Below are positions 3,001 to 48,185 of a DNA stretch of 64,000 bases, in pieces. Position numbers and translations under genes: made by a program. Below the pieces are notes generated by a model. It was not told the origin of the DNA, ran no database searches, and was given only the letters and a program-made list of their open reading frames with translations. The number at the start of each line of letters is the position of its first letter. The stretch's first letter is position 1. Location of the stretch: contig JAJDTM010000002.1 of NCBI GenBank assembly GCA_022827185.1, positions 1,560-65,559 of the forward strand. The letters are read 5' to 3'. Source of the DNA: Candidatus Poribacteria bacterium. GTDB taxonomy: Bacteria > Poribacteria > WGA-4E > WGA-3G.

Positions 3001-5145
3001 AGTGTCGTTACACTGACACTCAACGGGGCAATTTATGAACGATCTACCTTTGATCTCAGGGATGCTGTTGAGGTCTCTGGTATTGACGGTGCCACTTTTC
3101 ACTGGTTTGATTTGGACCGCGTCAGTGATACGGAATTGACGGTTGAATTAACATTCAGAGGCAACATTGACACGGATGCTATCCTCACCTTTACAGTGGG
3201 TGCGGATGCTATTGCCGAATACGACGGTCCCGCACTCATCGCACAAATAACTGTCGCTGGCGGCAAGGAATCCGTGGTGGCATCAACGGAAGCACCTTTG
3301 ACAGAGGTTACGCTCGATGGCAGTGTCGTCACGCTTACGCTCAGCGGGCGTACTTACGAACGATCCAGTTTCAGAATCAGAGACGCTGTGTCGGTCTCCG
3401 GGATTGATGGCGTGACAATCCCGTGGCACGAACCCGACAGAAAAAACGACACACAGATCACCATCGAACTGGAATTCAACGGCGACTTTGACGCGGATGC
3501 GATGCTCACTTTTACGGTCAAGGCAGAGGCACTGTTGAGATATAACGGTCCTGCACTCACCGTACAAGTACCTGTTACCGGCGGGCAGGAATCCATCGCC
3601 GCATCAATAGAATCTCCGTTGACTGAGGCGACCCTGGATGGCAGCGTCGTCACGCTTACACTCAGTGGTAGAGAATATGTTCGGTCTTCTTTTACCATTG
3701 AGCGTGCTGTGACGCTATCCGGCATTGACGGCGTAACCGTAGATGATATAGATCGCAACAGTGCTACGGAGATCGCTGTCGAACTGGCATTTAACGGGGA
3801 CTTCGATGCCGATGCGATACTCACACTCAATGTTGGGGCAGATGCTATAGACGGCTATAAGGGCCCCGCATTTACCGTACAACTCCGTGTCACTGGCGGG
3901 CAAGAATCGGTGGTTGCATCAACAAAAGCACCCTTAACCGAGGCAACATTGGATGGCAGCGTCGTCACGCTTACACTCAGTGGTAGAGAATATGTTCGGT
4001 CTTCTTTTACCATTGAGCGTGCTGTGACGCTATCCGGCATTGACGGCGTGACCATAGACGATGTAGATCGCAACAGTGCTACGGAGATCGCTGTCGAACT
4101 GGCATTTAACGGGGACTTCGATGCCGATGCGATACTCACACTCAATGTTGGGGCAGATGCTATAGACGGCTATAAGGGCCCCGCATTCACCGCAGAAGTT
4201 TCTGTGAGCGGCGGGCAAGAATCGGTGATCGCATCAACGAAAGCACCCTTGACTGAAGCAACATTGGATGGCAGCATCGTCACGCTTACACTCAGCGGTC
4301 GTAAGTATGTGCGGTCTTCTTTTACCATTGAGCGTGCTGTGACGCTATCCGGGATTGACGGCGTAACCGTAGAGGATGTAGACCGCAACAGTGCTACGGA
4401 GATCGCTGTCGAACTGGCATTTAACGGGGACTTCGATGCCGATGCGACACTCACACTCAATGTTGGGGCAGATGCTATAGACGGCTATAAGGGCCCCGCA
4501 TTTACCGTACAACTCCGTGTCACTGGCGGGCAAGAATCGGTGGTTGCATCAACAAAAGTGCCCTTGACTGAAGCGACATTGGATGAGAGCGTTGTCACCC
4601 TCACACTCAACGGCAGGAAGTATGAACGCTGGAATTCTACAATCAGAAGGGCTGTGTCAATCTCTGGTATTACAGGTGTTACCGTCCGGAGTTTTGATAT
4701 AGACCGTGAGAGCGATACGGAAGTCACCGTCGAGTTGACCTTCAACGGCAATATGAACACTGATAGCACACTCACATTCACCGTAGGTGCCGGTGCAATT
4801 GCAGGATACAACGGTCCGGCACTCACGGCGCAAATAACTGTTACTGCTGATAGAGAGAACGCGCTTTTAGCAAACTTCCCGAATCCGTTTAATCCTGAAA
4901 CATGGATTCCATATCAACTCGCGAAATCCACAGAGGTCACCATCACTATCTATGCAGTGAACGGACAGGTGGTTCGGACATTGGCACTCGGGCATCAATC
5001 TGCGGGGATGTATCAGAGTCGTTCCCGTGCGGCATATTGGGATGGCAGAAATGCGTTCGGTGAACCTGTGGCAAGTGGGGTCTATTTCTATACGCTCACC
5101 GCAGGCGATTTCACCGCTACACGAAAAATGTTAATACGGAAATAG
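1..5145 (+). CDS. 5'-partial giant secreted protein: zincin-like metalloprotease domain, two cadherin-like domains, about ten tandem roughly 105-aa repeats and a T9SS-type C-terminal sorting domain
   Basis: ORF runs off the window start. The HEIAHGLGF zinc-binding motif is at about nt 590. Cadherin-like signature (ATDADNDxLTY...TVTVxVSDG) occurs twice between 1080 and 1600. A roughly 315-nt repeat period runs from about 1650 to 4850. The C-terminus NFPNPFNPETWIPYQL...VYFYTLTAGDFTATRKMLIRK matches the Por_Secre_tail/T9SS CTD pattern. Confidence 0.8.
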   Translation: MFGSTPHTMSRVEVPGQASETSKEPTVVNPTSREKALEGMSILYGTNKNANTRIPPPMLNLFQRGEALTTVPSQFIVTYDGFTDEAIEAFQYAVDIWNALIRSPVPIRIDASFIDFGGFEDGTVILGGARPASWKSSRSLDLWFPEALADNGAGRDITAGEPDIITRFNSHEDANWYFGTDGNTPSGKTDFVSTVLHEIAHGLGFSSFATVDKSSMWRFSASSEGGKLRARRPKLAQIYDFFIENGAGKTIMSFPDPSYALENQFTSNDLFWNGKKGAQANGGILPHLYAPSAWAEGSSYTHLDEITFPAGTANSLMTAYLDNQEAIHTPGPIALGMLEDMGWTINKPPVFTDGSTTTRTVVNGSVGKPVAATDADNDPLTYHLSGTDAAAFDIDGTTGQLKTKAAHNYNTQTAYTVTVTVSDGSLLNEIAVTINVIGTETETPTNSTPRFVDGNHTQRTVAENTAKGVNIGNPIAATDADNDALTYTLGGPDAKSFEIDNTTGQLKTRANLDYETKDTYTVTVTVSDGGLTVTITVIIIIIDLDDQESPVLTLVSQPLTETTLNGSVVTLRLNNRVYENWLSDPVTVSGIPGVTVKPFDITRLNDTELSVQLTFYGTDLNTDATLTFTVKADAIANYDGPALTATAEVTANAESVTASTITPLTEATLNGSAVTLTLDGGVYESQYTVGNSVTVSGIPGVTVDGFNVERLSGTQVNVGLIFDGTDFDRDATLTFTVGADAIVGYNGTALTAQLPVSAVVEKTPIITAYYPSRALTEATLDESIVTLTLSSGMYTQSSADISRAVTVSGIAGVTFLQSDVVRVSDTKVTVKLTFDGTDFDTDATLTFTLSADAITNYDGPALITTVLVSAVVEERPTITASATQPLTEATLNGSIIRLTLNNSTYVRSNFDIDNAVTVSGIAGVTVGFFGVERVSDTVIIFELEFNGNLDTNTTLIFTVGADAIVEYDGPALIAQIIVNGGQESVVASTETPLTETTLNGSVVTLTLNGAIYERSTFDLRDAVEVSGIDGATFHWFDLDRVSDTELTVELTFRGNIDTDAILTFTVGADAIAEYDGPALIAQITVAGGKESVVASTEAPLTEVTLDGSVVTLTLSGRTYERSSFRIRDAVSVSGIDGVTIPWHEPDRKNDTQITIELEFNGDFDADAMLTFTVKAEALLRYNGPALTVQVPVTGGQESIAASIESPLTEATLDGSVVTLTLSGREYVRSSFTIERAVTLSGIDGVTVDDIDRNSATEIAVELAFNGDFDADAILTLNVGADAIDGYKGPAFTVQLRVTGGQESVVASTKAPLTEATLDGSVVTLTLSGREYVRSSFTIERAVTLSGIDGVTIDDVDRNSATEIAVELAFNGDFDADAILTLNVGADAIDGYKGPAFTAEVSVSGGQESVIASTKAPLTEATLDGSIVTLTLSGRKYVRSSFTIERAVTLSGIDGVTVEDVDRNSATEIAVELAFNGDFDADATLTLNVGADAIDGYKGPAFTVQLRVTGGQESVVASTKVPLTEATLDESVVTLTLNGRKYERWNSTIRRAVSISGITGVTVRSFDIDRESDTEVTVELTFNGNMNTDSTLTFTVGAGAIAGYNGPALTAQITVTADRENALLANFPNPFNPETWIPYQLAKSTEVTITIYAVNGQVVRTLALGHQSAGMYQSRSRAAYWDGRNAFGEPVASGVYFYTLTAGDFTATRKMLIRK
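1650..4850 (+). repeat. Coding tandem repeats of 315 bp (about 105 aa) unit; the three units at 3636-3950, 3951-4265 and 4266-4580 are nearly identical at DNA level
   Basis: The string ggatggcagcgtcgtcacgcttacactcag recurs at 3636, 3951 and 4266, exactly 315 nt apart. Minus-strand shadow ORFs also recur with 315-nt spacing. Earlier units are more diverged. Confidence 0.75.
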
Positions 5146-6060: not shown

Positions 6061-8769
6061 TTACATCGAAATCCCTAATAATCCGCGCGTCAACTGAAAA
6101 TCCGTATTCCCTTTGTCGTGGAGCTTCGGCGTATACTGCCGCGATGCCACCTCTACAATTAACGCTAACAACTTCTCAACATTAGCAGTCTCTAAATCCA
6201 GATCCGCGCCGTAGGTGGATTGCGTTGCGGCATCTGTGGAGACCTGAATGAGTGGCACCATTACATGCGATTGTAAGGGGGCACCGACGATGTGAGCGAG
6301 TGCCAGATCCACACCTGCTGCGCCGAGTCCTGTCAACGTTTCTGTCGGTTGGTCTGTGGGAGTTTCCATGATGTGGAAACCGGCTTTTTCGACGCGCTGC
6401 CCATACGCTAAGGATGGTGGACGGCACGACGGAGCGTGCCTACTACCTTGCACGAATGTCGCGTTTTCAGGCACGATAATTGTTCCACCCGCAGTGGTGA
6501 CTCTGTAGATTAATTGTGTTAGGGATTGAGAGACTTCCTCTGTTATCTCACCTGTTGATGTCACGGCTACACGGAGGTGTTCTAATCCAGCATTGACAAC
6601 CGGAACAGATGGTTTATCCGAAAGCGTTTCCGAAAACCAGTCTTGCACCTTCTCAATAACAGCATCAATCCCGCCATCCAACTGCACGCTCGCCCAACCG
6701 TAACTTTCCGGCGATATTCCCAACTTCTGAATCTCATGTCGGACGTGGTCGTTATGGGTTTTCTCACAACCGTGTTCAAGAAGCAGCCCAAGTGCGACCG
6801 TCGGATGCGTGAGGTGTCCAAGCATCGTGCGGGTATAAATCTCCTCAGAACGTCCACTGGAGACACCGCAGCCCTCTGTATGTGGCAGTGCTACAAAACG
6901 GGATATACCTTGCTTCTCGCCGATCTTCTGTTCATTGCAGCGGTGCGCAATCATCTCCGCAATCTGCCCAGAACAGAGGCTTGTCGGTAAGATGAGTCCG
7001 ACCTGATCCGTGCGGTAACCCGCTTCCGTTTGGAGCGCACGGAAAACCTCCAGACCTGGTAGGTGCGGTTTCCTAACCGCACCTACTCCCAAGGTCTCAA
7101 TCGGAATGGGTTCGCCGGATTTCAACTCGGATGCTGTTAACAACGGGTCTAAATCCACGGGACCCGTCTGCTTCCAATCGCGCCACAGCGAGACTTGCGA
7201 ATGCCCCGCTTTCTCACCGACTGAACGTTCACCGGACGCGACATCCACCGTCAGATCCAACATTGACTCACCGAGTTCTTCCATCGGTGTGCCGTCAAGA
7301 TACGCACCGGCGTTCACGTCCATATCCTTGGTGAGCATCTCATAACGTCCTGTCGTCGTGACAATCTTGATCGTCGGCACGAACGGGAAATTCGTGATAG
7401 AGCCGTTGCCTGTCACAAAGAAGATCATGTTGGAACCGGATGCCACCTGCCCTGCGATACTCTCTAAATCGTTGCCTGGACTGTCCATGAAATAGTAACC
7501 AGGGTTCTCCATGCGTTCACTGTAATTGATGACATAATCCAGACAAACATCCGGATGCCGTTTCATTGCCGCACCGATTGATTTAATGGCGATATTATAG
7601 AGACCGCGGAAGTTGTTACCGCCAGAAGGGTTTCCTTCTGCGGAGTGTCCATGCCACGAGACGCGTTCCTTAAACCGTTCAATCGTATTGAGGAACGTGC
7701 GCGCTGTCGGCAGGTCCCGGACGTTCTGAAGCACGTAAGCCTCTGAACCGATCAGTTCATCGGTTTCCGCGAGGTTGGCGCAACCACCGTAACGGATGAC
7801 CTCTTTTGCTACATAGGCAGCGAGCGGATTGCCTGATACTCCAGAGAACGCGTCGGAGCCGCCACACTGCAAGGCGATTTTTAGATACGTCAGAGATTCT
7901 TCAGTGCGTGGCACACTATTCACACTTTCCAACCATCCGTTAATAATTTCTACGCCGTTGGCTAAATCGGTGTCAAACCCCTCTTGTAGCCGATAGAAAC
8001 GGTGGACGACATCATCTAAAGCGTAGCCTTCGCGTAACATATATGCCTTGAGCATATCGTTCGTAACCGCTTCGGTGCCGTAGTCAACGAGCAGTATCGC
8101 ACCGATATTTGGATGGACAGTAAAACCGGCGAGCGTTCGGAGCAACATATCAATGTTATTGGGTGTCTGGCTTTCACCGCCCTCTGTATGCGTTACGGCG
8201 ACAACTCCGTCTATATTCGGAAATGTATCGGGGTTACAAACCTCTCCTACAGAACACATCTCTGCAAGTCTCCTTGCGAAACCGGAGGTACGTGAAGTCG
8301 TTCCCATGACGACGATATAGTTCCGCGTACCAACGCCACGGTTACCCGGACGTTGGTAGCCAAGGAAGGAACGCGGGGTCGTGTGCCGTGGCGCCTGCTC
8401 TCCAGGGTGGAATTCTGTTTCGTTCAGTACATAGGGCACCATCTTGTCGCTGAAGTTAGGTGTTTCTGGCAATTCAAAGGGCAGATGCCTAATGGACAAC
8501 GAATCAATCATCTTCTGATTGCACACATAGTCGCCGGGGGCAATGGAACGTATTGCATAACCGAAGGGTAATCCCCAGGACAACAAGGGTGCTGCTTCTG
8601 AAATCGACGCAATGGCGAAGCGATGTCCTTCTAAAATGGTATGCGATAGTTGAAACTGCGCTCCATTATAGCGTATGTGAGTGCCGCCTTCTAATGTCTG
8701 CGTGGCAATAGCGACGTTATCATTCGGTGAAGGAAGCCGCGCGACAGAGGTAAGATCAAAATCCATCAA
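6061..8769 (-). CDS. UxaA/GarD-family altronate/galactarate dehydratase with an extra partial duplicated UxaA-like region (902 aa)
   Basis: N-terminal SAF domain (NDNVAIATQTLEGG). The first roughly 520 aa align along E. coli UxaA from memory (GVGTRNYIVV, HTEGG, CGGSD..GNP, PTIKI). Residues about 560-800 repeat the central UxaA motifs (ILPTSLCS, ALPHTEGCG). A REP-like palindrome is embedded in-frame near the 3' end. Confidence 0.6.
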   Translation of the reverse strand: MMDFDLTSVARLPSPNDNVAIATQTLEGGTHIRYNGAQFQLSHTILEGHRFAIASISEAAPLLSWGLPFGYAIRSIAPGDYVCNQKMIDSLSIRHLPFELPETPNFSDKMVPYVLNETEFHPGEQAPRHTTPRSFLGYQRPGNRGVGTRNYIVVMGTTSRTSGFARRLAEMCSVGEVCNPDTFPNIDGVVAVTHTEGGESQTPNNIDMLLRTLAGFTVHPNIGAILLVDYGTEAVTNDMLKAYMLREGYALDDVVHRFYRLQEGFDTDLANGVEIINGWLESVNSVPRTEESLTYLKIALQCGGSDAFSGVSGNPLAAYVAKEVIRYGGCANLAETDELIGSEAYVLQNVRDLPTARTFLNTIERFKERVSWHGHSAEGNPSGGNNFRGLYNIAIKSIGAAMKRHPDVCLDYVINYSERMENPGYYFMDSPGNDLESIAGQVASGSNMIFFVTGNGSITNFPFVPTIKIVTTTGRYEMLTKDMDVNAGAYLDGTPMEELGESMLDLTVDVASGERSVGEKAGHSQVSLWRDWKQTGPVDLDPLLTASELKSGEPIPIETLGVGAVRKPHLPGLEVFRALQTEAGYRTDQVGLILPTSLCSGQIAEMIAHRCNEQKIGEKQGISRFVALPHTEGCGVSSGRSEEIYTRTMLGHLTHPTVALGLLLEHGCEKTHNDHVRHEIQKLGISPESYGWASVQLDGGIDAVIEKVQDWFSETLSDKPSVPVVNAGLEHLRVAVTSTGEITEEVSQSLTQLIYRVTTAGGTIIVPENATFVQGSRHAPSCRPPSLAYGQRVEKAGFHIMETPTDQPTETLTGLGAAGVDLALAHIVGAPLQSHVMVPLIQVSTDAATQSTYGADLDLETANVEKLLALIVEVASRQYTPKLHDKGNTDFQLTRGLLGISM
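6423..6447 (-). repeat. REP-like palindromic element copy (acggcacgacggagcgtgcctactac) lying in-frame inside the UxaA-like ORF
   Basis: Same hairpin family (GGCACG-n6-CGTGCC followed by CTACTAC) as the copies at 14844-14908, 15580-15604 and 38004-38062. It translates as GSRHAPSCRPPS within the ORF. Confidence 0.6.
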
Positions 8770-10663: not shown

Positions 10664-10716
10664 ACGTGTCCGGTCATAGTGATTTGTCACATCTAAACTG
10701 AGAGGCGGTTCGTAGT

Positions 10717-10748
10717 GGCGCAATTCATTGCGCCTTAATTTTTATCCC
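10717..10748 (+). terminator. Hairpin GGCGCAATTCATTGCGCC followed by a T-rich run; member of a small palindrome family
   Basis: Perfect 7-bp stem with 4-nt loop, then ttaatttttat. An inverted copy of the same palindrome lies at 36175-36191. Confidence 0.45.
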
Positions 10749-10749
10749 C

Positions 10750-10920
10750 AGGCCCGGTAGGTTCGGTTTTGCGGCGTACACGCCCAAATTTTGCCCACAC
10801 GCGCCCAAATTTTGCTTCGCAGTGAGAAAACTTTACATTTGCGACGTGCATTCCTAACCGAACTGGATCCTTCAAAAAAAGACGTGAAACCCAATAATTT
10901 CTTAAAATTGAATGGCTCTG
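10750..10920. repeat. Composite intergenic repeat, apparently a hairpin element split by an about 80-bp insertion plus a roughly 55-bp motif shared with 39110-39164
   Basis: aggcccggtaggttcggttt ... ttcctaaccgaac matches the intact hairpin at 41644-41681. ggatcc..aaaaaaagacgtgaaacccaataatttcttaaaattgaatggctctg matches 39110-39164. acgcccaaattttgc occurs twice directly. Confidence 0.55.
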
Positions 10921-13095: not shown

Positions 13096-13572
13096 ATGCA
13101 AAAACGCATCTACATTGAAACAACAATTCCAAGTTCTTACTATACGTTGCGAACCGATGAAGAATCGCTTATTAGACAGAAATTGACTCGGCAATGGTGG
13201 GACGAATACGCGGATATATTTACCCTAACTTCAAGTAGTGCGGTTGAAACTGAGCTTAGACAAGGAATGGGTAAAACAACACAGGATAGACTGGCATTGC
13301 TTGAAGGTGTTGAGATATTCATTTCTTCCATTGAAATCTTGCAAATTGCACAAATATATATTGATAGTTTGATAATGCCGAAAGAACCACAAGGAGACGC
13401 GCTTCATCTGGCATTTGCCTCATTTCACAAAGTTGACGCGATGCTCACATGGAATTGTACACATCTTGCTAATCCGAACAAATTTGATTTCATCACACGT
13501 ATTAACCGAGAATTGGGATTAACAACTCCAGAATTAAAAACACCATATGACTACTTTGGAGGTGCCGCATAA
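13096..13572 (+). CDS. PIN-domain-like protein (possible degenerate toxin-like nuclease)
   Basis: N-terminal IYIETT, central DALHLAFA and C-terminal LTWNCTHL resemble PIN motifs but with acidic residues substituted (E, N). Overlaps the next small ORF by 26 nt. Confidence 0.3.
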   Translation: MQKRIYIETTIPSSYYTLRTDEESLIRQKLTRQWWDEYADIFTLTSSSAVETELRQGMGKTTQDRLALLEGVEIFISSIEILQIAQIYIDSLIMPKEPQGDALHLAFASFHKVDAMLTWNCTHLANPNKFDFITRINRELGLTTPELKTPYDYFGGAA

Positions 13573-13810
13573 AATGGAAAGGAAAATTGATCTTCGCAGT
13601 ACAGAAATGAATGAAGTCGTTAAGGAAGTTCGCGAAATGCGGATGAAAATTTCAGAAGAATGCGGACATGATCTCAACAGATTGCTTGCTTACTATCAAG
13701 AAGTAGAAAAAGAAATGCGGAAGTCCGGTAAGTATAAGTTTGTCGATCCGGAACCACCTGCTGAGAAACCCGCGACCACAGAATCAACTCGTGGTGAAGC
13801 AGCAGATTAA
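13547..13810 (+). CDS. Small charged hypothetical protein overlapping the PIN-like gene
   Basis: 87-aa ORF, Lys/Glu-rich, overlaps upstream ORF. No domain recognised. Confidence 0.3.
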   Translation: MTTLEVPHKMERKIDLRSTEMNEVVKEVREMRMKISEECGHDLNRLLAYYQEVEKEMRKSGKYKFVDPEPPAEKPATTESTRGEAAD

Positions 13811-13994: not shown

Positions 13995-14834
13995 CTATGT
14001 AGTATTATTCTCCAACGAATATTCTCGATTGCCACCAGGACCACCACCGATTGCCCATGTGCCACGGAATAGCGATTGCCGCTTCGGAGGCATCGTTTCT
14101 ATGATTTCATGGCTCAGGTTCAATCGGTGCCACTGTGCCCAGATGGAGTTGTAGCAGTTAAAGACCGCACATCGTGGGTTGTCTGGGTTCGTCCAGTCAT
14201 TTGCGGCGTGGACGAGGCTTTCAGTGAAGATAACGACAGAACCCGGTGGGCAGCTATAGTCGTCCATCACCTCACGCATACTTTCCTCCCACGGCGATTC
14301 GCTGATATTCGGACGATACTTGTCGGGACCGCCGTAGTTGAAGTGTGCCTTATGTGAGCCACTGAGGAAAGAGGTAGCACCTTGTCCTGACTTCACCTCT
14401 TCAAGCTCCCACACAACACGCGTCAACCCCGCAAAAATCTTTTCACCAGCGACCTGGTACCGCATCGCGTTCGCTTGTTGCGGTGGACGTACAACGTGCG
14501 GCAGACCGTTATCACCACGTTCCGACACACCCCAACCCGGGGGTCTCACAGTCGTAAATGACCCTTCGCATCGAAATCCATAGCAATCCTCATGTACAAA
14601 CGGATCTTCGGACAGAATTTCATTTAGGACACCTACAATTGCAGGATGGTCAAGCAAGGTTTGCAGTGCACCCTGATAACTCTGTCTTGCACCGTCATAG
14701 ACTTCCGCTTTCATCTCTTCGATTTCTGGTTCCGACAGGACGGATGGCAACAGGATCCAGCCACGAAGATCAAAGAAAAACTTCTGTTCTGGTGTCATTG
14801 CTATTGGTGTATCCGTTGTGGTTTGGTTTGACAT
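13995..14834 (-). CDS. Phytanoyl-CoA dioxygenase (PhyH) family Fe(II)/2-oxoglutarate oxygenase
   Basis: N-terminal LTPEQKFFFDLRGWILLPSVLSEPEI typical of the PhyH family. Size 279 aa. Confidence 0.7.
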   Translation of the reverse strand: MSNQTTTDTPIAMTPEQKFFFDLRGWILLPSVLSEPEIEEMKAEVYDGARQSYQGALQTLLDHPAIVGVLNEILSEDPFVHEDCYGFRCEGSFTTVRPPGWGVSERGDNGLPHVVRPPQQANAMRYQVAGEKIFAGLTRVVWELEEVKSGQGATSFLSGSHKAHFNYGGPDKYRPNISESPWEESMREVMDDYSCPPGSVVIFTESLVHAANDWTNPDNPRCAVFNCYNSIWAQWHRLNLSHEIIETMPPKRQSLFRGTWAIGGGPGGNREYSLENNTT

Positions 14835-14843
14835 TGATTTTCT

Positions 14844-14908
14844 CCTTAATGGTAGTAGGCACGCTCCGTCGTGCCGTTCACTAAAGGGGTTTACGGCACG
14901 CGGAGCGT
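14844..14908. repeat. REP doublet in inverted orientation (BIME-like) immediately 3' of the RAYT gene
   Basis: gtagtaggcacgctccgtcgtgccgt at 14844-14869 and acggcacgcggagcgtgcctactac at 14884-14908, separated by a 14-nt spacer. Each forms a GGCACG/CGTGCC hairpin. Confidence 0.75.
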
Positions 14909-14918
14909 GCCTACTACT

Positions 14919-15563
14919 TTAGATCTGATACAAAAAATACTCACCCTTCTGAAGGTGGATTGGATTTTTCTGGATGTATTGCTGGATCGCACAGAACTGC
15001 TCAGGTGAGCGTACGAGGTGATCGAAGCTCTCTTCCTGCCAAAACCGTCCGGTTTTGCCAAGCACTTTGTTGATTTTACCGGCACTGAACCTTTTCCATG
15101 AACGGCATTGTTTCAGGAGTTCTGTGGCACCTAACAAACAGACTAACAAATGAACGTGATTAGGCATAACCACGAAGTCGCCTATGTGATAACGATCACC
15201 ATTAAAGTATAATAAACTGTCCGCTACGATCTTTGATAGTTCGGGGTTTCGTAGGACGCATGCCCCGAGACCTTTATCAAGGTTTTCCATATACTGCTGT
15301 GAGAAGGTTTCATGAAATTGTTTACGGAATTTTTCTGGAAGTGTCGCCAGTTTATCTTTCCAACCCGATATTGAGGTCGTAATTCCGTGTCGTGCAAGCC
15401 ATGCTGATCGTTCGGCGTACCATCGTCGAGCTACGTGCGTAGGGAGTGAGTCTTCAGTGCGAAACGTGATAAAGTAGGTTGCTGGCAGTTGAAACCAATG
15501 TGGCAGATTTGAACCGGCTATTATAATTTGGAAATCGCTGTTCGGATCAAAGAGGTTGAACAT
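14919..15563 (-). CDS. REP-associated tyrosine transposase (RAYT; IS200/IS605 Y1 HUH transposase family)
   Basis: HUH motif region VVMPNHVHLLV, conserved FWQEESFDH and overall Y1_Tnp layout. Flanked on both sides by REP hairpins. Confidence 0.8.
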   Translation of the reverse strand: MFNLFDPNSDFQIIIAGSNLPHWFQLPATYFITFRTEDSLPTHVARRWYAERSAWLARHGITTSISGWKDKLATLPEKFRKQFHETFSQQYMENLDKGLGACVLRNPELSKIVADSLLYFNGDRYHIGDFVVMPNHVHLLVCLLGATELLKQCRSWKRFSAGKINKVLGKTGRFWQEESFDHLVRSPEQFCAIQQYIQKNPIHLQKGEYFLYQI

Positions 15564-15579
15564 AGTTGTTATGTGGTTT

Positions 15580-15604
15580 ACGGCATACGGAGTATGCCTA
15601 CTAC
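15580..15604. repeat. Degenerate REP copy upstream of the RAYT start
   Basis: acggcatacggagtatgcctactac uses a GGCATA/TATGCC stem variant with the same CTACTAC tail. Confidence 0.6.
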
Positions 15605-15606
15605 TT

Positions 15607-17499
15607 TTAAAGTGCCTGTTTCAATCCAGGCAAGAAATAATCCTTAACAACAACTTCCCAACTCATCCGGGAAGCGATGTCGTAGCCTTCTCGTAGCATA
15701 TCCTCCACATCACGGGGTTTACGCGGCAAACGTCCTAAAAGTTTCGCTGCGATGTCCCGACTATTTTCCATTTCAATCGCGTTCCGTTCCGCTAAGCCAA
15801 TATGCAGCACATCGTCCAACGATTTCGGTGGGATCTGCAGCTGCGTATAGTCAGCGACAACGATATTCGGGACTTCGCGGTTGTCGGTGGCACGTTGAAT
15901 GAAACCGCAACATCCGCACACGTTACTAACGACGCAGATTGCACCGAAACTCAACGGTTCCACCTGCGCGATTCCGAAAGGTTCATAGATAGACTGCCCA
16001 AATTCTGCATCGCTTCCCTTGCGGATGTCCATAAATTCCATCTCTATCGGCATCCGTTTTCCACAAGCGGCTTGACTCCATCCAAACTGATTCACAAAGA
16101 CGACTTTGATCGCCTTAGATTGGAGATTGAATGCGGAGACACCGTTGTTCAATTCGATTTCTGCACCGACGAGATCGGGATAACCGATTTTGTGGTGCAC
16201 GGGCCAACCGTATGCCTCCTCCATTTCGTGAATAGTTTCGTTGGATCTTCCTGTCGCAATTTCTGTGGAGAGGATAAACAGCACGGCGGTTTTATCGTTA
16301 GAGGCGAGGAGCGAATCGAGATGCATCAGCACCTGTAAATCGCGCCATAACCCTTTGCTTTTAACGAGCCGCGTTACGTGTGTGAAGACGTAATCGGGAC
16401 GGTAATCTAACAACGTTTTCGCATATTTTTGGAGCAGTGCTTTCGATGTGAGTTTCTCTTGTAGGCTCACCTCAAATGCAGGGATGCCGTTATAAACGAG
16501 GTTAATCGGAAAATCCTCAAACGACTTTGCTAAGAATCGGAGTTCATCTACGACGAGGTCTCCAACGGCGAAGATAGTATCACAGAGGTGTGCCTTGTCA
16601 ATCAGGGCGTGTTTGAAATACCAGAACGGGTCATCGAACACATCGCGGATCGATTGCCCTTGCGCTTTCGCCTGTTCTAAGGCGTTGTAAAAACGGACAT
16701 CATGACCGGGGTGTCCCTCAACGATAGGACGTATTGTCGCTACCTCGTGCGCGTAGAAGACAGTACGCATGTTCTGCGCCCCATCTACACCACCGTTGCT
16801 TTTCCGCTCAATGAGTGTTTTGAGGGCGAGCGGCATCCCCATGAATTCGTGCGAGATGATGAACACAGGGGTCGTTGTCTCTTCACCGATAATTGCTTGC
16901 AGTGCTGCATACGCGGGTTCCGCAAGACGGACATACTCCTCGAACTCCCACTCACTCTCGTAACGATTTGATTCTATTTGGAAGTGTTCGTAGAGTTGCC
17001 ATTTGAACTGTCCTGTCAGTGCTTCGTTGGTGTTTGAGACGTTCACCAAGATGACATCTGTGAGGGTTGTAATTTTCTTATTTTTATTTTCAAATTGGCG
17101 TTGTCCGTAAACGAGTTCCACATGATAGGTCTGTTCAATTTCGCTGAGAGCCTTTGCGTGGGGTGTATCCGTTATCCCCTCGCTGGCACGGTAGAGGATA
17201 GTATCCAAACTTCCCAAATCGGCACCTGGAAAGAGTGGACCCACAAGAAAGGTGCGCTCAATCGCTTCATTGTAGTTGCGGGTTGTCAGTAACCCTTCCA
17301 AGACTGCACCGATGCCCCCCATTTTTTGGATGGCTTCGTGTGTGACGTGAACAACAATACTCAAATTTTTTACCTCGCCTTGTATCTTTTGTATAGGCTT
17401 GCAAATAGGGTTATCAATGGATGAGATGAATATAAAGACGGTTTTGTAACAGTATATCTGTTGCGAAGAATTATAACACAATGTCGAAATAGATGTCAA
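15607..17499 (-). CDS. Glycogen (alpha-glucan) synthase-like glycosyltransferase, eukaryote-type (GT3-like) architecture
   Basis: HEAIQKMGGIGAVLEG resembles the GT3 glycogen-synthase N-terminal motif (vGGIytVl). A retaining GT-B layout is possible. Sits among glgB/glgP/glgC. The true start is probably downstream of the annotated ATG. Confidence 0.5.
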   Translation of the reverse strand: MTSISTLCYNSSQQIYCYKTVFIFISSIDNPICKPIQKIQGEVKNLSIVVHVTHEAIQKMGGIGAVLEGLLTTRNYNEAIERTFLVGPLFPGADLGSLDTILYRASEGITDTPHAKALSEIEQTYHVELVYGQRQFENKNKKITTLTDVILVNVSNTNEALTGQFKWQLYEHFQIESNRYESEWEFEEYVRLAEPAYAALQAIIGEETTTPVFIISHEFMGMPLALKTLIERKSNGGVDGAQNMRTVFYAHEVATIRPIVEGHPGHDVRFYNALEQAKAQGQSIRDVFDDPFWYFKHALIDKAHLCDTIFAVGDLVVDELRFLAKSFEDFPINLVYNGIPAFEVSLQEKLTSKALLQKYAKTLLDYRPDYVFTHVTRLVKSKGLWRDLQVLMHLDSLLASNDKTAVLFILSTEIATGRSNETIHEMEEAYGWPVHHKIGYPDLVGAEIELNNGVSAFNLQSKAIKVVFVNQFGWSQAACGKRMPIEMEFMDIRKGSDAEFGQSIYEPFGIAQVEPLSFGAICVVSNVCGCCGFIQRATDNREVPNIVVADYTQLQIPPKSLDDVLHIGLAERNAIEMENSRDIAAKLLGRLPRKPRDVEDMLREGYDIASRMSWEVVVKDYFLPGLKQAL

Positions 17500-24783: not shown

Positions 24784-25647
24784 TCAATCTCTGCCACCAC
24801 GTCCTCTCCTGCCACCACGGTCACCACGTCCTCCCCGAAATCTTTGTATCATTTCTCGCCGTTCCTCAGGTGAAGCGTTCCGCATCCGCTCTATCATCCG
24901 GCGCCTGTTTTGTTCAGCGTTCGCTCGCTCTCGCTGCTCCGCTTGTTCGCGCCTTGCAGCATCTGCTTGATTGCCTCTGTTTCGCTCGTTGTTATTGTTT
25001 GCGCTTTCGGAGCTACCTTCGCCGCGATCTCCACCTCTGTCACCACCGCGTCCCCGCTTAGCCGTGAGGAGTTGCAGTTCACCGATTTTGAGTGTTATTG
25101 TCTCGCCTGCTTTGTCCAAGGTTACCTGTTCGGCTTGGATGTCTGTTACTGTTATATCGCCAAGTTTTGTTCCGATGGTGACAAAGTGATGGCGATTAGA
25201 TCTCTTTTCCAGCAGTGTCGCTTGTGATATTGCCCCGTTTGCGTCAACAGCCTTGGTACCAAGCAGACTATATGCGGGTTCGTTTTTCGGAGGTGTCCAG
25301 CCTAAGGGTCGAAAGAGATTGTGATCGATGATAGTTTTGTAAAACGCTGCATTCTCTCCGAAATCGACGCTTCCTCCACGGTTTTGCCCTCGGTTTTGCC
25401 GTCCCCAAGTTCTATTGCGTTGCGGTTGGGCTTGTTCTCTCGCTTTGGCCATTGCCTGCATTTTAGCGGCATTTGTTTCTTTCATCTCTTTCATTTCAGG
25501 CTTTGTGGCGATGAACTCCGATTTCGTTTTTTCTTGTGCATAGAGCAATATCCCAAAGCCGAGGAGCAGGCATACCACACAACCGATGCCAAGTTTTGTA
25601 ATGATACTTCCTCGATTATTAGCAGTTTTCACTGGCTTTTCCTCCAT
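24784..25647 (-). CDS. Membrane-anchored protein with a PilP/GspC-like beta domain and an Arg/Glu/Gly-rich low-complexity tail (tandem paralog 1)
   Basis: N-terminal TM helix. Domain YHFVTIGTKLGDITVTDIQAEQVTLDKAGETITLK resembles the GspC/PilP HR domain. The C-terminal RGGDRGGDRGEG tail. Paralog of 25791..26633. Confidence 0.5.
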   Translation of the reverse strand: MEEKPVKTANNRGSIITKLGIGCVVCLLLGFGILLYAQEKTKSEFIATKPEMKEMKETNAAKMQAMAKAREQAQPQRNRTWGRQNRGQNRGGSVDFGENAAFYKTIIDHNLFRPLGWTPPKNEPAYSLLGTKAVDANGAISQATLLEKRSNRHHFVTIGTKLGDITVTDIQAEQVTLDKAGETITLKIGELQLLTAKRGRGGDRGGDRGEGSSESANNNNERNRGNQADAARREQAEQRERANAEQNRRRMIERMRNASPEERREMIQRFRGGRGDRGGRRGRGGRD

Positions 25648-25790
25648 TGTCTCCGACCCAGGCGCGTTTCTTAAGTGTTTTATTTTTTGAGCATTCGTAT
25701 TTCGGAAACTGGCATAGACATCCCTTTGCGACTTAAGACAGGTTCTATTGTAAAAAGGTTCTGTTTAATTTGACTGAAGAAGTCGCAACA

Positions 25791-26633
25791 TTATTTATCG
25801 CGATCGCTTTTACCACCGAACTCTTTCTTGTAATACTCCATAATTTCTTTTCGCTCTCCGTCTGATGAAGCGTGCCGCATCTTCTCCATTATCTCCCGTT
25901 TCAACGCCTCTCGTTGCGCGGCGGCTCGATTTTTCTGCTCCATTTGCCTGCGTTTTTCAGCGGCAGCCTGATTGGCTTTTTGGCGATCGTTGTTATTGCC
26001 CGCTTTTTCGGAGCCGCCTTCGCCACGATCTCCACCTCTGTCGCCACCGCGTCTCCCCTTAGCTGTGAGAAGTTGCAATCCCCCGGTTTTGAGCGTTATA
26101 TTCTCTCCCGCTTTATCCAATATAACCCGTTTCGCTTGGATGTCCTTTACTGTTATATCACCGAGTTTTGTCCCGATCGTCACAAAGTGGTAGCGATTTG
26201 ATCTTTTTTCCAAGAGCGTTGCTTGTGAGATTGCACCGTTTGCGCTGACAGCGGTACTGACCAAACTATATGCAGGTTCATTATTCGGCGGTGTCCACCC
26301 CAGGGGTCGGAAGAGATTATGGTCAATAATTGTCTTGTAAAACACTGCATTCTCTCCGAAGTCAACGCTACCGCCACGGTTTTGCCGTCCGCGGGACCTG
26401 TTGCGTTGCGGTTGGGCTTGTTCCTTTGCTTTGGCCATTGCCTGCCTTTTAGCGGTGTATGTTTCTTTCATCTTTTTCATTTCAGCAGTGTCCATCTCCG
26501 GCTTTGTAGCGATGAACGCCGATTTTGTTTTCTCTTGCGCGTAGAGCAGTATCGCGAAACCGAGAAGCAGGCATACCACACAACCGATTCCAAGTTTTGT
26601 AATGACGCTTCCCCGATTATTAGGGGTTTTCAT
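25791..26633 (-). CDS. Tandem paralog 2 of the membrane-anchored PilP/GspC-like protein
   Basis: About 80% identical N-terminal 200 aa to 24784..25647. Same TM helix, same domain, a different low-complexity tail. Confidence 0.5.
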   Translation of the reverse strand: MKTPNNRGSVITKLGIGCVVCLLLGFAILLYAQEKTKSAFIATKPEMDTAEMKKMKETYTAKRQAMAKAKEQAQPQRNRSRGRQNRGGSVDFGENAVFYKTIIDHNLFRPLGWTPPNNEPAYSLVSTAVSANGAISQATLLEKRSNRYHFVTIGTKLGDITVKDIQAKRVILDKAGENITLKTGGLQLLTAKGRRGGDRGGDRGEGGSEKAGNNNDRQKANQAAAEKRRQMEQKNRAAAQREALKREIMEKMRHASSDGERKEIMEYYKKEFGGKSDRDK

Positions 26634-27006
26634 TGCTTTTCCTCCGTGATCTTCGGTTTCCAGACGTGTTTCTTAAGACTTCCACTTCACGGGATTCCAT
26701 TTCGGAACCTCGCGTAGACATCTCTTTGCAACTTAAGGCAGACGCTAATGCGAAAAGATTTTCTTTAATTTTACTTTGTATTTTGCTGAATGTCAAATCA
26801 AATGGCTCCTAAGGTGTCGAACTATTTGAATTTATGAACCGCCCTATACATTTATTTGGACGAAAAGATTGCCTACAAGTTTATTTCAATAAGGAGAATT
26901 GATCGCTACAGGTCTTCAACTGTCATTGCAAAAAGCGTTGACTTTCCGAAAAAAATGGGGTAAACTTTATAGAAATAGATCTTTCTCATAAAAGGAAAAA
27001 CTTGAC

Positions 27007-36161: not shown

Positions 36162-36360
36162 ATACCGAACGCGAGGCGCAATGAATTGCGCTACTACGAG
36201 CCAGGATACTTTACTGTTTGGAGGGACGCGATTCACCGCAGCGATGGGGGTTGTCTGGTTTCTATGCACAGCCTAACAGGCTATGCTACAAACGCTATCT
36301 ACTATAATCCTTCGTAATACCATGGCACGCTAAAAATAATATACACAATGAGGTGACTTC

Positions 36361-38001
36361 ATGTTTAATAGACCCCCAACCATCGGTGAATACCTACTCA
36401 GAAAACTGGAAAGTTACGATATTGGACACATCTTCGGTATCCCTGGCGATTATGTGCTGCGGTTCTATGACCTCATAGAGAAAAGTTCAATTCGGCATAT
36501 CGGGATGACCCGTGAGGACGCGGCAGGTTATGCGGCAGATGCCTACGCACGCACAAACGGGATGGGGGCTGCCTGTGTTACCTATTGCGTCGGTGGGTTA
36601 TCAATGGTGAACGCCGTTGCGGGTGCCTACGCCGAGAAATCACCCGTCGTTGTCATTAGCGGCGCGCCAGGTATCAGAGAACGCGGGAAAGATGCCCTGC
36701 TCCACCATAAAGTCAGGGATTTCCATACACAACAACATATCTATGACGAGATTACCGTCGCGACCGCGCTGCTCGATGAACCCTTTACGGCTTTCAACGA
36801 AATTGATCGGGTGCTTGATGCGGTGGATCGCTATAAACGCCCTGGCTACTTAGAACTCCCACGCGATATGGTAGATGTCCGCGGCACACTCTACCAACGT
36901 CCATCAACGGGTGGACATCTCAGTGACCCAGACACATTAGATGCCGCTGTTACGGATGCTATTGATTTCATTAATCAGAGCAAGAAACCGGTGGTTCTTG
37001 CAGGTGTAGAGGTACACAGATTTGGCTACCGAAACAAATTGACCCGGTTCGTAGAAGAGAAACGCATTCCTGTGGTGGCGACGCTCCTCGGGAAATCTGT
37101 TATCTCAGAATCACATCCGCTCTACTTGGGTATCTATGAAGGTGCCATGGGACGGGAAGAAGTCAGACGATTCGTTGAAGATTCGGATTGTGTTATCATC
37201 CTCGGGGCATTCATGACGGATGTCAATCTCGGCATTTACACGGCAAACCTCGACCGTTCGCGTTCTATCTATGCGACATCGGAAAAGATCATGGTCCGCT
37301 ATCACTCATACGAAGAAGTGATGTTTGATGACTTTATTGACGGCATCAATTCGCCGAAACTCCGAAAGCGGCGGAAACCGAATTTGGAGTGGGCACTCCG
37401 AGATTCAAAACCGTTTGTTGTCGAGCCTAATGCCCCTCTAACAGTGCGTCGGTTGTTTCGACACCTCAACGAATTTATTACCGATGGGCTGGTAGTAATC
37501 GCGGATGTCGGCGATAGCCTCTTCGGTGCTGTGGAATTGCGAATGTCTCAAGACACCGATTTTATCAGTCCTGCGTACTATACCTCAATGGGATTTGCCG
37601 TCCCCGCATCTGTTGGTGCGCAACTCAGTATGCCTAACAAACGTCCGCTCGTTATCGTCGGAGATGGTGCCTTCCAGATGACTGGCACCGAACTCTCAAC
37701 AACCGTGCGTTACGGACTCAATCCGATTATCCTGCTTTTAAACAACCACGGGTACGGCACAGAACGGCATCTTCTTGAGGGAGCTTTCAACGATATAGGG
37801 TGTTGGAACTACAGCAGCATGCCAGCCCTCTTTAGTGCGGGGCGTGGCATCCATGTCCGGACGGAAGGTGAGTTTGAAACTGCTATCAAAACTGCACTCG
37901 CTGAGACGCAGCACTTTACGCTGATTGAAGCGGAGCTCGAAAAGTTGGATACGTCACCTGCCCTTGCCCGGTTAGCAGAACGGATGTCCGGCACAGTTTA
38001 A
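36361..38001 (+). CDS. Thiamine-pyrophosphate-dependent 2-keto acid decarboxylase (indolepyruvate/pyruvate decarboxylase family)
   Basis: IGEYLLRKLESYDIGHIFGIPGDY, GYAADAYAR and the TPP-binding GDGAFQMT motif. 546 aa. Confidence 0.65.
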   Translation: MFNRPPTIGEYLLRKLESYDIGHIFGIPGDYVLRFYDLIEKSSIRHIGMTREDAAGYAADAYARTNGMGAACVTYCVGGLSMVNAVAGAYAEKSPVVVISGAPGIRERGKDALLHHKVRDFHTQQHIYDEITVATALLDEPFTAFNEIDRVLDAVDRYKRPGYLELPRDMVDVRGTLYQRPSTGGHLSDPDTLDAAVTDAIDFINQSKKPVVLAGVEVHRFGYRNKLTRFVEEKRIPVVATLLGKSVISESHPLYLGIYEGAMGREEVRRFVEDSDCVIILGAFMTDVNLGIYTANLDRSRSIYATSEKIMVRYHSYEEVMFDDFIDGINSPKLRKRRKPNLEWALRDSKPFVVEPNAPLTVRRLFRHLNEFITDGLVVIADVGDSLFGAVELRMSQDTDFISPAYYTSMGFAVPASVGAQLSMPNKRPLVIVGDGAFQMTGTELSTTVRYGLNPIILLLNNHGYGTERHLLEGAFNDIGCWNYSSMPALFSAGRGIHVRTEGEFETAIKTALAETQHFTLIEAELEKLDTSPALARLAERMSGTV

Positions 38002-38003
38002 TA

Positions 38004-38062
38004 GTAGTAGGCACGCTCCGCCGTGCCGTAACAGGGTAGTAGGCACGCTCCGCCGTGCCGTA
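38004..38062 (+). repeat. Two direct tandem REP copies (gtagtaggcacgctccgccgtgccgt x2)
   Basis: Copies at 38004-38029 and 38037-38062, in the gap between convergent genes. Confidence 0.75.
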
Positions 38063-38067
38063 TACTT

Positions 38068-38871
38068 CTACAACGCAGTGATCTTCTCACGTAAGAAGTT
38101 CGTACAGAAAGGCACCTGTTCTTCCGAAAGTCCGTGCAGCACGACTGCGCCGTCATAACCGCTCTCCTTTAGCAGACCGAGATATTGGTCGTAGTCGAGC
38201 AACCCTGTCCCCGCGGCGAGGTGTCCTGCCTGTCCGTCCGTGTCCAAATCTTTAGCGTGTGCAAGTGCAATGTCGCCGCCGAGCAGTGCGAACGCCTCAT
38301 TAAGGATTTCACGCATCTTTGGCAGCTCACCTTTGTGAAAAATGTTCGCGCCGTCCATACACACCTTTAGGTAAGGGGATTGCATCTCATCAAGCAGGCG
38401 ACGCGCTTTCTGGGCAGAATCAATTACGTTTGCGACTTCAGGTTCAAGTGCAAGCACTACGTCGTATTCCTCCGCCACTGCTAACGCCTGTTTCATGGAT
38501 TCAACGAGATCGCGCCACGCTTCTGGCGTATTGTTGTCAGGATGTGCACGCCACATGCTCTGCGGGTCGCGAGAGCCGGTGCAGAGCGTAATGACCGATG
38601 TTCCGAGCGGTGCGCAGGTCTCCGCGACAGAACGCAACATCCGCAGCCCGGCGTGGCGTTTCTCAACATCAGGGTCAATCATATTATAGGTGCCTGAAAG
38701 TGCAGAAATCGTAATCTGTCGAGCGTCCATCTCTTTGCGGATCTCGGCAATCGACGGTCCCGATGCAGGCACATGATACTGTAGATGATGGACACCGTGT
38801 TCCACAACGGCATTAAGATTCTCGGTGAGTGTTTTTCGGCGAATTGTTCCTTCCATGAGTCCAACGTGCAT
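38068..38871 (-). CDS. Sugar phosphate isomerase/epimerase (xylose-isomerase-like TIM barrel)
   Basis: 267 aa with the AP-endonuclease-2/XylI-like TIM barrel pattern (LALEPE..., HAKD). Confidence 0.55.
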   Translation of the reverse strand: MHVGLMEGTIRRKTLTENLNAVVEHGVHHLQYHVPASGPSIAEIRKEMDARQITISALSGTYNMIDPDVEKRHAGLRMLRSVAETCAPLGTSVITLCTGSRDPQSMWRAHPDNNTPEAWRDLVESMKQALAVAEEYDVVLALEPEVANVIDSAQKARRLLDEMQSPYLKVCMDGANIFHKGELPKMREILNEAFALLGGDIALAHAKDLDTDGQAGHLAAGTGLLDYDQYLGLLKESGYDGAVVLHGLSEEQVPFCTNFLREKITAL

Positions 38872-41643: not shown

Positions 41644-41681
41644 AGGCCCGGTAGGTTCGGTTTCCTAACCGAACCGGGCCT
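41644..41681. repeat. Imperfect hairpin aggcccggtaggttcggtttcctaaccgaaccgggcct, the intact version of the split element at 10750-10866
   Basis: Two arms ggcccggt..gttcggtt / aaccgaaccgggcc. Located just after the 40806..41582 stop. Confidence 0.55.
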
Positions 41682-45602: not shown

Positions 45603-45611
45603 GCACATCGC

Positions 45612-45665
45612 CTGCGGATGTCAACGGCGATGGTGTTGATCCGTGACCTCGTCGCCATCGAAAAT
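45612..45665 (+). pseudogene. Frame-shifted dockerin remnant just 3' of the ECF-fusion stop
   Basis: gatgtcaacggcgatggtgtt encodes DVNGDGV, then a frame break, then DLVAIENN. This resembles the [20 protein letters not shown] dockerin repeats of neighbouring genes. Confidence 0.5.
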
Positions 45666-45721
45666 AATTTGGCGGAGAGACAAGCCAATTCTTACTACTT
45701 ATATGGAGAAGAATATGCCTT

Positions 45722-46567: not shown

Positions 46568-46675
46568 TATCCGTCTATTTTTCAAGCGTGTGGGCTTATT
46601 GTCAACCGTCCGGAACTCTCGTGGGTAGAGCAATTAGCATCCCACGATCTGTTTTTCTGCCGTGGGGAGTTCGGA

Positions 46676-47878: not shown

Positions 47879-48185
47879 GAAACACGCCAAGTTTTTCGCA
47901 GAAATGACCGATTTTCACTGAAAAATGGTGTTCGTGCGTCTAAAATCACATAGGTAGCAAGTTAGGTTATTCTAAAATGTCGAAACACTTGACGAAACTC
48001 AAGAGACTTGAAAAATATCAGCATTAGAATATTCCTTAAATGCTTCTGCTTAACGATTGCAGAAACCTCGCCCTTTAGGGCGGGGTCTATCACGACTTCA
48101 TTATACCAAAAGGGTTCTGTTTATACAAAAAGTTACGCGATTATTTATCAGAGTCACGTTATACAAACGAATGAGGTAAATCCCT

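Follow-up and report, generated by a model that had tools for sequence, protein, structure and literature searches.

The window analyzed here is a stretch of 64,000 nucleotides (64 kb) from contig JAJDTM010000002.1 of a Candidatus Poribacteria bacterium. Poribacteria are an uncultured phylum that includes sponge symbionts. Between a glycogen-synthase-like gene and a PhyH-like gene, the window holds a reverse-strand gene for a REP-associated tyrosine transposase (RAYT), bracketed by copies of a short repetitive extragenic palindromic (REP) element. An earlier reading of this segment, made from the sequence only, had proposed a complete REP and RAYT unit with a Y1 HUH gene lying between REPs. 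The unit is indeed complete: its layout in the gene direction is REP> (15 nucleotides, nt) RAYT> (1 nt) REP> (15 nt) <REP, and the nearest relative of the protein by both profile and fold is the E. coli TnpA-REP (4ER8).

The RAYT gene and its bracketing REPs

The features of the locus are as follows.

14919..15563, reverse strand: RAYT (TnpA-REP-like HUH/Y1 protein) gene, 214 amino acids, with the HUH motif H136-V-H138 and the catalytic Tyr Y196 in YIQKNP
15579..15604, reverse strand (gene orientation): upstream REP, GTAG-TA-GGCATAC-tcc-GTATGCC-GT, starting 3 nt past the glycogen-synthase-like stop codon, with 15 nt between its end and the RAYT ATG
14893..14917, reverse strand (gene orientation): proximal downstream REP, 25 nt, GTAG-TA-GGCACGC-tcc-GCGTGCC-GT, 1 nt past the RAYT stop codon
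14852..14877, forward strand (inverted): distal downstream REP in the 26-nt form, at the end of the unit, 17 nt upstream of the start of the PhyH-like gene at 14834
14852..14917, no strand: REPIN made of two inverted REPs and a 15-nt spacer, forming one long hairpin

The RAYT open reading frame (ORF) is full length, and its N-terminus is the MF.LFDP conserved throughout the family, as seen in an alignment of 30 homologues with 59-93% identity to the window protein. The MPNHVHLL stretch, already noticed in the sequence-only reading of the 214-residue ORF, corresponds to residues 133-140. H136 and H138, together with W175, Q176, Y196, I197, N200 and P201, are invariant (30 out of 30 homologues), so that both the HUH motif and the catalytic tyrosine stand in the alignment, with a HuH-to-Tyr spacing of 58 residues in the window protein. 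The N-terminal half is also largely invariant (F2, F5, G17, L20, H22, W23, Q25, F31, T33, R35, T36, D38, S39 and others). A database search with the protein returned 3963 homologues, the best 120 of which are full length with 59-93% identity; most homologue clusters among these 120 comprise one contig each. The source records that name the homologues at all call them "transposase" (Poribacteria, Pirellulaceae, Pirellulales, Planctomyces, Planctomycetaceae) or "REP element-mobilizing transposase RayT".

The NCBIfam model NF047646, REP_Tyr_transpos, reports a hit with the RAYT (E = 8e-15, 55 bits) that covers only residues 122-203. Searched against the PDB, the profile of the 30 homologues has the E. 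coli TnpA-REP 4ER8 as its top match (E = 0.003), followed by ISDra2 transposases, and aligns the HUH with LPEHMH and the YIxxNP motif with YIYINP of 4ER8; the single sequence reaches 4ER8 at E = 0.4 only, and the profile is needed for the lower value. The AlphaFold model (pLDDT 81, pTM 0.79) exhibits the expected core strands and helices, with H136 and H138 on predicted strand 136-143 and the Y196 motif on predicted helix 187-203. Three additional helices, covering about 60 residues (~42-96), separate strand 1 from the first core helix, and the N-terminal arm (residues 1-25) has a low pLDDT yet is conserved in sequence. Foldseek ranks 4ER8 first among PDB entries (E = 3e-5, probability 1.0), and the next 29 entries are all transposases of the IS200/IS605 family (IS608, ISDra2, IS200). 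To our knowledge, the long RAYT subfamily to which this protein belongs has no biochemical or structural representative.

Every REP copy in the window carries a 5' GTAG foot, the tetranucleotide being intact in 6 out of 6, and a 7-base-pair (7-bp) G+C stem. The copy at 14893-14917 has a perfect 7-bp stem closed by a TCC loop and is one base shorter than the 26-nt form, in which an additional base in the 3' arm makes a bulge. The sequence-only reading had placed a degenerate REP on the 5' side of the gene. A REP does lie there, at 15579-15604, but it is not degenerate: CG is replaced by TA in both arms, a compensated change that retains all 7 pairs. The same GGCATAC/GTATGCC stem variant occupies the same place, adjoining the upstream gene's stop codon, in the orthologous loci L121 and L123. 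The stem of this copy folds at -6 kcal/mol (z = -3.7). The doublet reported on the 3' side (14852-14917) folds as a single hairpin of -34 kcal/mol (z = -10.6), a value equaled by 0 out of 200 shuffles. Two inverted REPs with a short spacer that form one hairpin are called a REPIN, a concept that reportedly goes back to Bertels and Rainey 2011. The outermost REPs around the gene are mutually inverted (15579-15604 on the reverse strand, 14852-14877 on the forward strand); a RAYT gene flanked by at least two inverted REPs is a criterion for these systems (Nunvar et al. 2010, PMC2817692).

The 26-nt pattern GTAGTAGGCACGCTCCGYCGTGCCGT has four exact matches in the window (6421-6446 on the reverse strand; 14852-14877, 38004-38029 and 38036-38061 on the forward strand) and 0 in 100 dinucleotide-preserving shuffles. 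The copies at 14893-14917 and 15579-15604 fall outside this pattern and were recovered by a shortened core pattern together with a detector of hairpins. No known RNA family accounts for the hairpins, since an Rfam search of 14000-16500 returned a SAM-Chlorobi match alone, lying inside the gene, at chance level (E = 0.5) and below the gathering score.

The position of the gene is conserved. An identical RAYT protein is encoded on a metagenome scaffold (ENA ERZ23491282, KELL22-1 scaffold_66, 262 kb), and two homologues, 93% and 83% identical, are flanked by the neighbors of the window gene, namely a glycogen-synthase-like gene upstream and, downstream, a PhyH-like gene, a small two-gene pair and an alpha-amylase-family gene. 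One of the orthologue contigs belongs to another Candidatus Poribacteria bacterium (GCA_022821965.1, JAJECN01), and the order glycogen-synthase-like gene, RAYT, PhyH gene is found in three Poribacteria genomes including that of the window. The loci L121 and L123 carry more REP copies than the window, with two to three head-to-tail REPs upstream and direct, then inverted, REPs downstream. Among Poribacteria orthologues the RAYT evolves under strong purifying selection, with a ratio of nonsynonymous to synonymous divergence (dN/dS) of 0.06-0.10 at dS of 0.37-1.9, the copies at the same site in the three genomes differing at dS up to ~0.9. The window contains one RAYT gene, and no TnpB gene adjoins it among the ORFs of the window locus and of the scaffold neighborhood. 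The fixed site, the strong purifying selection, the lack of TnpB and the RAYT-type Tyr motif fit a vertically kept, domesticated gene rather than an IS200/IS605 insertion sequence. Regarding the small pair directly downstream of the PhyH-like gene, it consists in the window (13096-13810) of overlapping ORFs of 158 and 87 residues; a corresponding pair (158 and 78 residues as called) is kept with the RAYT neighborhood in L001, L121 and L123. These two genes may be toxin-antitoxin-like.

REP copies away from the RAYT gene

Three further copies lie elsewhere in the window.

6421..6446, reverse strand: dispersed REP, lying in frame within a UxaA-like gene, at a variable loop, and encoding GSRHAPSCRPPS
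38004..38029, forward strand: dispersed REP, first of a head-to-tail pair, 2 nt past the stop codon of the TPP-enzyme gene 36361..38001
38036..38061, forward strand: dispersed REP, second of the pair, preceding the reverse-strand gene 38068..38871

These are the copies that the sequence-only reading had placed at 6423, 38004 and 38037, and the coordinates are mended here. Its picture of daughter REPs dispersed through the window holds for two loci besides that of the RAYT, with the correction that the copy at 6421 is intragenic and not extragenic. The REPs of RAYT systems are mostly intergenic and typically exceed 100 copies per genome. The head-to-tail pair (38004-38061) occupies nearly all of the 66-nt gap between two convergent genes, encoding a thiamine pyrophosphate (TPP) enzyme (36361..38001, forward) and a xylose-isomerase-like TIM barrel (38068..38871, reverse).

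The intragenic copy lies in a reverse-strand ORF (6061..8769) of 902 residues that holds two UxaA/altronate-dehydratase-like (GD_AH) units in one reading frame. The REP is in the loop of the second unit, and a palindrome of another GTAG-hairpin family, at 7059-7086, sits at the junction of the units. Homologous proteins differ in this loop: the insert is missing from some and shared by one, and several carry (Y/D/H)GTR(R/S)VPTT, the peptide encoded by the REP reverse complement. The DNA alignment resolves the same states, the site being empty in L205, filled by a same-orientation REP with a decayed 3' arm in L207, and filled by an opposite-orientation REP with the stem GGCACAC/GTGTGCC in L206. 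Since one orthologous site is thus empty or filled in either orientation, it is direct evidence that a REP has been inserted, or turned over, there. In-frame intragenic REPs are known from other bacteria (PMC3733652). In L206, the region matching 6061-8769 is called as separate overlapping genes, and for this reason either repeat insertion or the gene calling may have created the fusion seen in the window.

The distribution of the element outside the window was scanned in one genome per GTDB species with the pattern GTAGTAGGCACGCTCCG(N)CGTGCC, which returned at least 119 stretches. The sequence-only reading had proposed a lineage-specific REP family, which does not hold: by their record titles, the stretches listed come from at least 41 Poribacteria and at least 32 Planctomycetota assemblies, each a species genome with the exact 23-mer. 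The Planctomycetota include Pirellulales, Gemmata, Isosphaeraceae, Planctomycetaceae and Lacipirellulaceae, and one metagenome-assembled genome (MAG) among the matches listed is labeled Alcaligenaceae. The median G+C content of the stretches is 47% in Poribacteria and 63% in Planctomycetota, a difference that excludes cross-contamination. A RAYT homologue is present in about 4 of the 119 stretches listed, one of these being weak (29% identity), which indicates that nearly all REP copies are dispersed away from a RAYT and that they are not confined to one locus. Among the matches listed, a genome has up to ~10-12 REP-bearing stretches. In the fetched stretches listed, Poribacteria REPs are mostly singletons (64 out of 100 copies), and inverted doublets number 10 among these 100 and 24 among 78 Planctomycetota copies; the latter copies are mostly inverted doublets with the GTAG outward.

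Two further loci place the REP beside a RAYT. In L124, a 9.2-Mb contig with a 64%-identical RAYT, GTAGCAGGCACACGCCGTGTGCCGT occurs in direct orientation upstream and in arrays of the inverse downstream, and in a Bythopirellula MAG a 55%-identical RAYT adjoins the exact 23-mer. The downstream array of L124 (5650-5950) is made of tandem units of ~60 nt, each consisting of an inverted REP, ACGGCACACGGGAGTGTGCCTGCTAC, and a CACACG-rich spacer, and is far longer than that of the window. The synonymous sites of the window and L124 genes are saturated, so that the link between the phyla is old while the REP core has stayed nearly constant.

A logo of 208 REP copies from related loci reads t t [a/c] A [a/t] [a/g] GTAG TAG GCACGC TCC GCGTGCC G T [a/c][a/c] c. 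The foot is present in all 208, but the search pattern required GTAG, and the conservation of the foot in this logo is therefore circular. Conservation extends beyond the element on both sides, and the GT tail after the stem is kept in 203 (G) and 197 (T) of the 208 copies. The REP type common to both phyla is GTAG-[T/C]AG-GCAC[G/A]C-TCC-G[C/T]GTGCC-GT, in genomes ~16 G+C points apart. Tentatively, and at somewhat less than even odds, the transposase may have kept the REP nearly constant since very ancient times, or a REP-RAYT system supposed to be vertically inherited and domesticated may have passed between the phyla and later become fixed at one site; the foot and loop would serve as the recognition code.

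For the wider subfamily, the family profile was run on JGI metagenomes and yielded 441 confirmed relatives, 80 of which were kept (33-54% identity over the whole length, including the N-terminal half). A detector of GT[AG]G-footed hairpins, independent of the 23-mer pattern, reports 4.1 hairpins per kb within 300 nt of the gene and 0.41 per kb elsewhere in the same 80 loci, a tenfold enrichment. At least one such hairpin is found at 57 loci, both gene sides have one at 36, and 30 display the bracket of upstream direct and downstream inverted copies. The loops are TCC in 78 and TCT in 20 out of 186 hairpins, while the stems vary by locus. The pattern is one of natural covariation, in which hairpin, foot and loop are kept and the stem drifts with the RAYT lineage. 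Because the stems vary while the other parts stay, the GT[AG]G foot and the TCC loop, rather than the stem, are predicted to form the recognition code. Loop positions are recognition determinants in the Stenotrophomonas and Marinomonas REPtrons (PMC8266576) and, by analogy, the loop is probably one in the subfamily of the window RAYT too.

A probable REPtron and its alternatives

We interpret the region as a REPtron, i.e. a single domesticated HUH/Y1 RAYT gene flanked by its cognate REP copies, with a probability of about 0.9. Studied TnpA-REP enzymes bind the REP as a folded single strand, reading the GTAG foot and irregular or loop features, and cut at a nearby dinucleotide through a 5'-phosphotyrosine intermediate before rejoining the DNA (PMC3479197, PMC3333891, PMC8266576). 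If the window protein resembles the E. coli, Stenotrophomonas and Marinomonas enzymes, it would bind the REP as a folded single strand and recognize it by the GTAG foot, unpaired at the 5' side, by the 7-bp G+C stem and, probably, by the TCC loop. Cleavage beside the hairpin would then proceed via a covalent 5'-phosphotyrosine at Y196, with a metal held by H136 and H138, and the rejoining of the DNA would copy or move REPs and REPINs to new sites. The sequences directly show the intact catalytic apparatus, the substrate-like repeats, their layout and their turnover. In this scheme, we infer the biochemistry, the specificity and the cleavage site, as well as the mobilization of the REPs by the window RAYT rather than by another in the genome.

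Several points weigh against this interpretation. The NF047646 score of 55 bits is below the curated cut-off of 80, and the confirmation by Pfam PF01797 Y1_Tnp that the sequence-only reading had called for falls formally just short (22.8 bits for a cut-off of 23). With both curated cut-offs missed, the assignment to the RAYTs is based on profile, fold and context; according to Quentin et al. (PMC6006769), class 2 proteins are incompletely covered by PF01797, and a precomputed PF01797 match is present in many close homologues. The superposition on 4ER8 is just moderate (TM 0.40/0.50), owing to the ~60 extra residues of the three-helix insertion (~42-96). The REP and RAYT copy numbers cover the 64-kb window and the stretches listed. 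The CT dinucleotide at which the studied enzymes cut (PMC8266576) is not evident beside the REP in the flanks of the 208-copy logo, so that the cut site may differ from that of the studied systems. Lastly, the window holds two other GTAG-hairpin families, denoted GTAGTNGCGCAAttcaTTGCGCC and GTAGGTTCGGTTtcctAACCGAAC, with no second RAYT visible in the window; the pairing of REP and RAYT is thus by adjacency only. The members of these families are as follows.

10712-10734, forward strand, and 36175-36197, reverse strand: second GTAG-hairpin family, GTAGT[N]GCGCAA-ttca-TTGCGCC, both intergenic
7059-7086 and 41651-41674, also 10749-10768: third GTAG-hairpin family, GTAGGT[T/G]CGGTT-tcct-AACCG[A/C]AC, often within CAGGCCCGGTAGGTTCGGTT

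The second family shares the GTAGT leader with the main REP and differs in stem and loop; no dedicated RAYT is visible for it in the window, and it has 8 more copies in the Poribacteria stretches L002, L005, L031, L064, L070, L072, L080 and L111. The third family has 15 more copies in Poribacteria stretches, and at 7059-7086 it forms a 28-nt palindrome without mismatch that has GTAG/CTAC at the ends ("double foot"). Similar tcct or ttcc loops are found beside the distant RAYT relatives L187, L201 and L203, which suggests that a second, putative RAYT lies elsewhere in the genome.

Alternatively, the hairpins could be host regulatory palindromes, such as terminators or mRNA-stabilizing stem-loops, located near an unrelated or inactive Y1-like gene that plays no part in their spread. 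Three copies lie directly past stop codons (that of the glycogen-synthase-like gene at 15604, of the RAYT at 14917 and of the TPP enzyme at 38004), and REPs are known to influence termination and mRNA stability (PMC3733652, PMC6006769). A terminator-like scan flagged one REP hairpin, on the non-REP strand, whereas no T-run follows the stem on the REP strand, where the logo reads GT[a/c][a/c]c. The promoter and terminator scan gave no useful excess over background, with 3 promoter-like sites for 2.4 expected. A purely regulatory role also leaves aside the tenfold enrichment of GT[AG]G hairpins at homologous genes in 80 unrelated metagenome loci, with stems that track the RAYT lineage, the invariance of the catalytic residues, the strong purifying selection on the gene, and the copy that lies within a coding region in either orientation depending on the genome. 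This alternative is improbable, and a secondary host role of the REPs is compatible with a REPtron.

The locus could instead be an autonomous insertion sequence of the IS200/IS605 type, whose Y1 transposase moves itself and whose hairpins are subterminal ends. Weak matches to Pfam Y1_Tnp and to NCBIfam transpos_IS200 (E = 0.006, 16.8 bits for a cut-off of 55), the rank of the IS608 and ISDra2 transposases as next-best structural matches and the presence of hairpins on both sides of the gene point in this direction. However, the RAYT model scores far above the IS200 model (55 vs 16.8 bits), and the Tyr motif YIQKNP is of the RAYT type (YIxxNP) and not of the IS200 type (Y---Q, PMC6006769 Table 1). 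Insertion sequences of this type have multiple near-identical copies and frequently a TnpB partner, yet no TnpB gene adjoins, the window has one gene copy, the gene occupies the same chromosomal position in three genomes at dS up to ~0.9, and dN/dS is ~0.1. Moreover, solo GTAG-footed hairpins are dispersed without the gene, whereas IS200-type hairpins have no GTAG foot. An autonomous element is therefore very improbable.

The least probable alternative, a decaying relic of a RAYT surrounded by immobile, fossil REPs, could be invoked from the preponderance of singletons over REPINs among Poribacteria copies, as the REPIN is treated as the replicative unit in other bacteria (PMC3116915), but it is contradicted by the full-length ORF with its family start, by the dN/dS of 0.06-0.10, by the perfect stems of the flanking REPs, including the compensated CG>TA variant, and by a REP kept while the synonymous sites of the RAYT diverged (dS ~0.8-1.9 among Poribacteria orthologues) or became saturated (L124).

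Other repeats, related systems and significance

The window contains several repeats of other kinds. At least nine tandem coding repeats of 315-321 nt, 62-86% alike, occupy 1672-4699, within a 1730-residue product that matches Big_9, cadherin and FlgD_ig on the source contig. Several large paralogous genes (44277-55627, 47736-57294, and 4873-5145 / 52808-53080 / 57483-57755) combine leucine-rich-repeat-like units with a 66-nt period and dockerin-like DVNGDG repeats. They have a common C-terminal module with 70-80% DNA identity, which is also found in the cadherin-like gene. Two pairs of adjacent paralogous segments, at 24912-26640 and 59174-63056 (offsets of 1001 nt and 3009 nt, 73-85% identity), point to tandem gene duplications.

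The E. coli TnpA-REP (RAYT, YafM; 4ER8), assigned to RAYT group 2 of Bertels et al. and to subclass 2.2 of Quentin et al. 2018, is the nearest solved relative of the window RAYT by profile and fold. Both share the HUH, the W and the YIxxNP helix, and in both systems REPs with a 5' GTAG foot bracket the gene and are also scattered between genes; the E. coli REP also has a bulged stem base, as does the 26-nt form of the window. In contrast, the window protein is only ~16% identical to 4ER8, is longer (214 vs 165 residues), with ~60 additional helical residues and a conserved N-terminal arm, and carries NHVH/WQ where E. coli has DHLH/WE. At 29-37 nt, the bulged palindromes of E. coli are long (PMC8266576), whereas the REPs described here measure 23-26 nt, with a 7-bp stem, a 3-nt loop and 2 nt between foot and stem.

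Subclass 2.7 of Quentin et al. 2018 (PMC6006769 Table 1) is the best fit for the window RAYT, as judged from the published table and not from a sequence comparison. Its median length is 213 residues (214 here), and it has [ND]HVH (NHVH here), WQ, YI..NP, conserved motifs upstream of the core, a normal HuH-to-Y distance, a low copy number and GT[AG]G-foot REPs. It differs by its Y motif, YI[LR][NQ]NP, the window having YIQKNP, which departs from it at two variable positions, and its family YI[AR]xNP, by REPs that are called long, and by a distribution in Cyanobacteria and a few other phyla. No planctomycete name appears in the text of the supplementary files of that study.

The short GTAG REPs of Pseudomonas and Stenotrophomonas (GTAG-1/2 of Di Nocera et al. 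2013; group 3 REPtrons of Corneloup et al. 2021) resemble the window REP in their ~23 nt, near-perfect stem of 7-8 bp, conserved 3-nt loop, dinucleotide between GTAG and stem, and conserved short tail (GT here). Their proteins are different, with ~151 residues, DH[LF]H and YI[VI]ANP (subclass 2.5), and the window RAYT belongs to a distinct, longer subfamily. Rhodopirellula baltica possesses the GTAG-20 and GTAG-21 families (Di Nocera et al. 2013, PMC3733652), likewise GTAG REPs with several families per genome and in-frame intragenic copies, and the window REP family is itself common to Planctomycetota. The peptides encoded by the R. baltica intragenic REPs (e.g. SRIRQEF) do not match the window REP translations, and no GTAGTAG or GGCACGC string occurs in the supplementary files of Di Nocera et al. 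2013, so that the likeness to these families is by description.

GTAG REPs, RAYTs, REPtrons, REPINs, several REP families per genome, REP families across distant taxa and intragenic REPs have all been described (PMC2817692, PMC3733652, PMC6006769), and the locus leaves the current picture of REPs and RAYTs unchanged. What is new is the host phylum, the long RAYT subfamily with TCC-loop REPs, and one 23-mer common to Poribacteria and Planctomycetota. In the literature, Poribacteria and "repetitive extragenic palindromic" co-occur solely in a review on an unrelated subject, the discovery of marine bioactive compounds. REP-RAYT systems are among the few transposases retained by their host, and have been studied almost wholly in Proteobacteria. 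The varying stems, set beside a fixed foot and a fixed TCC loop, provide a covariation series that predicts recognition determinants, and the UxaA-loop site, with its empty, forward and reverse states, gives a handle on REP insertion. The 23-nt repeat common to both phyla may serve as a marker when checking bins, typing strains or testing whether inheritance is vertical or horizontal. Regarding the organism itself, the locus documents a complete and apparently functional REP-RAYT system in Poribacteria.

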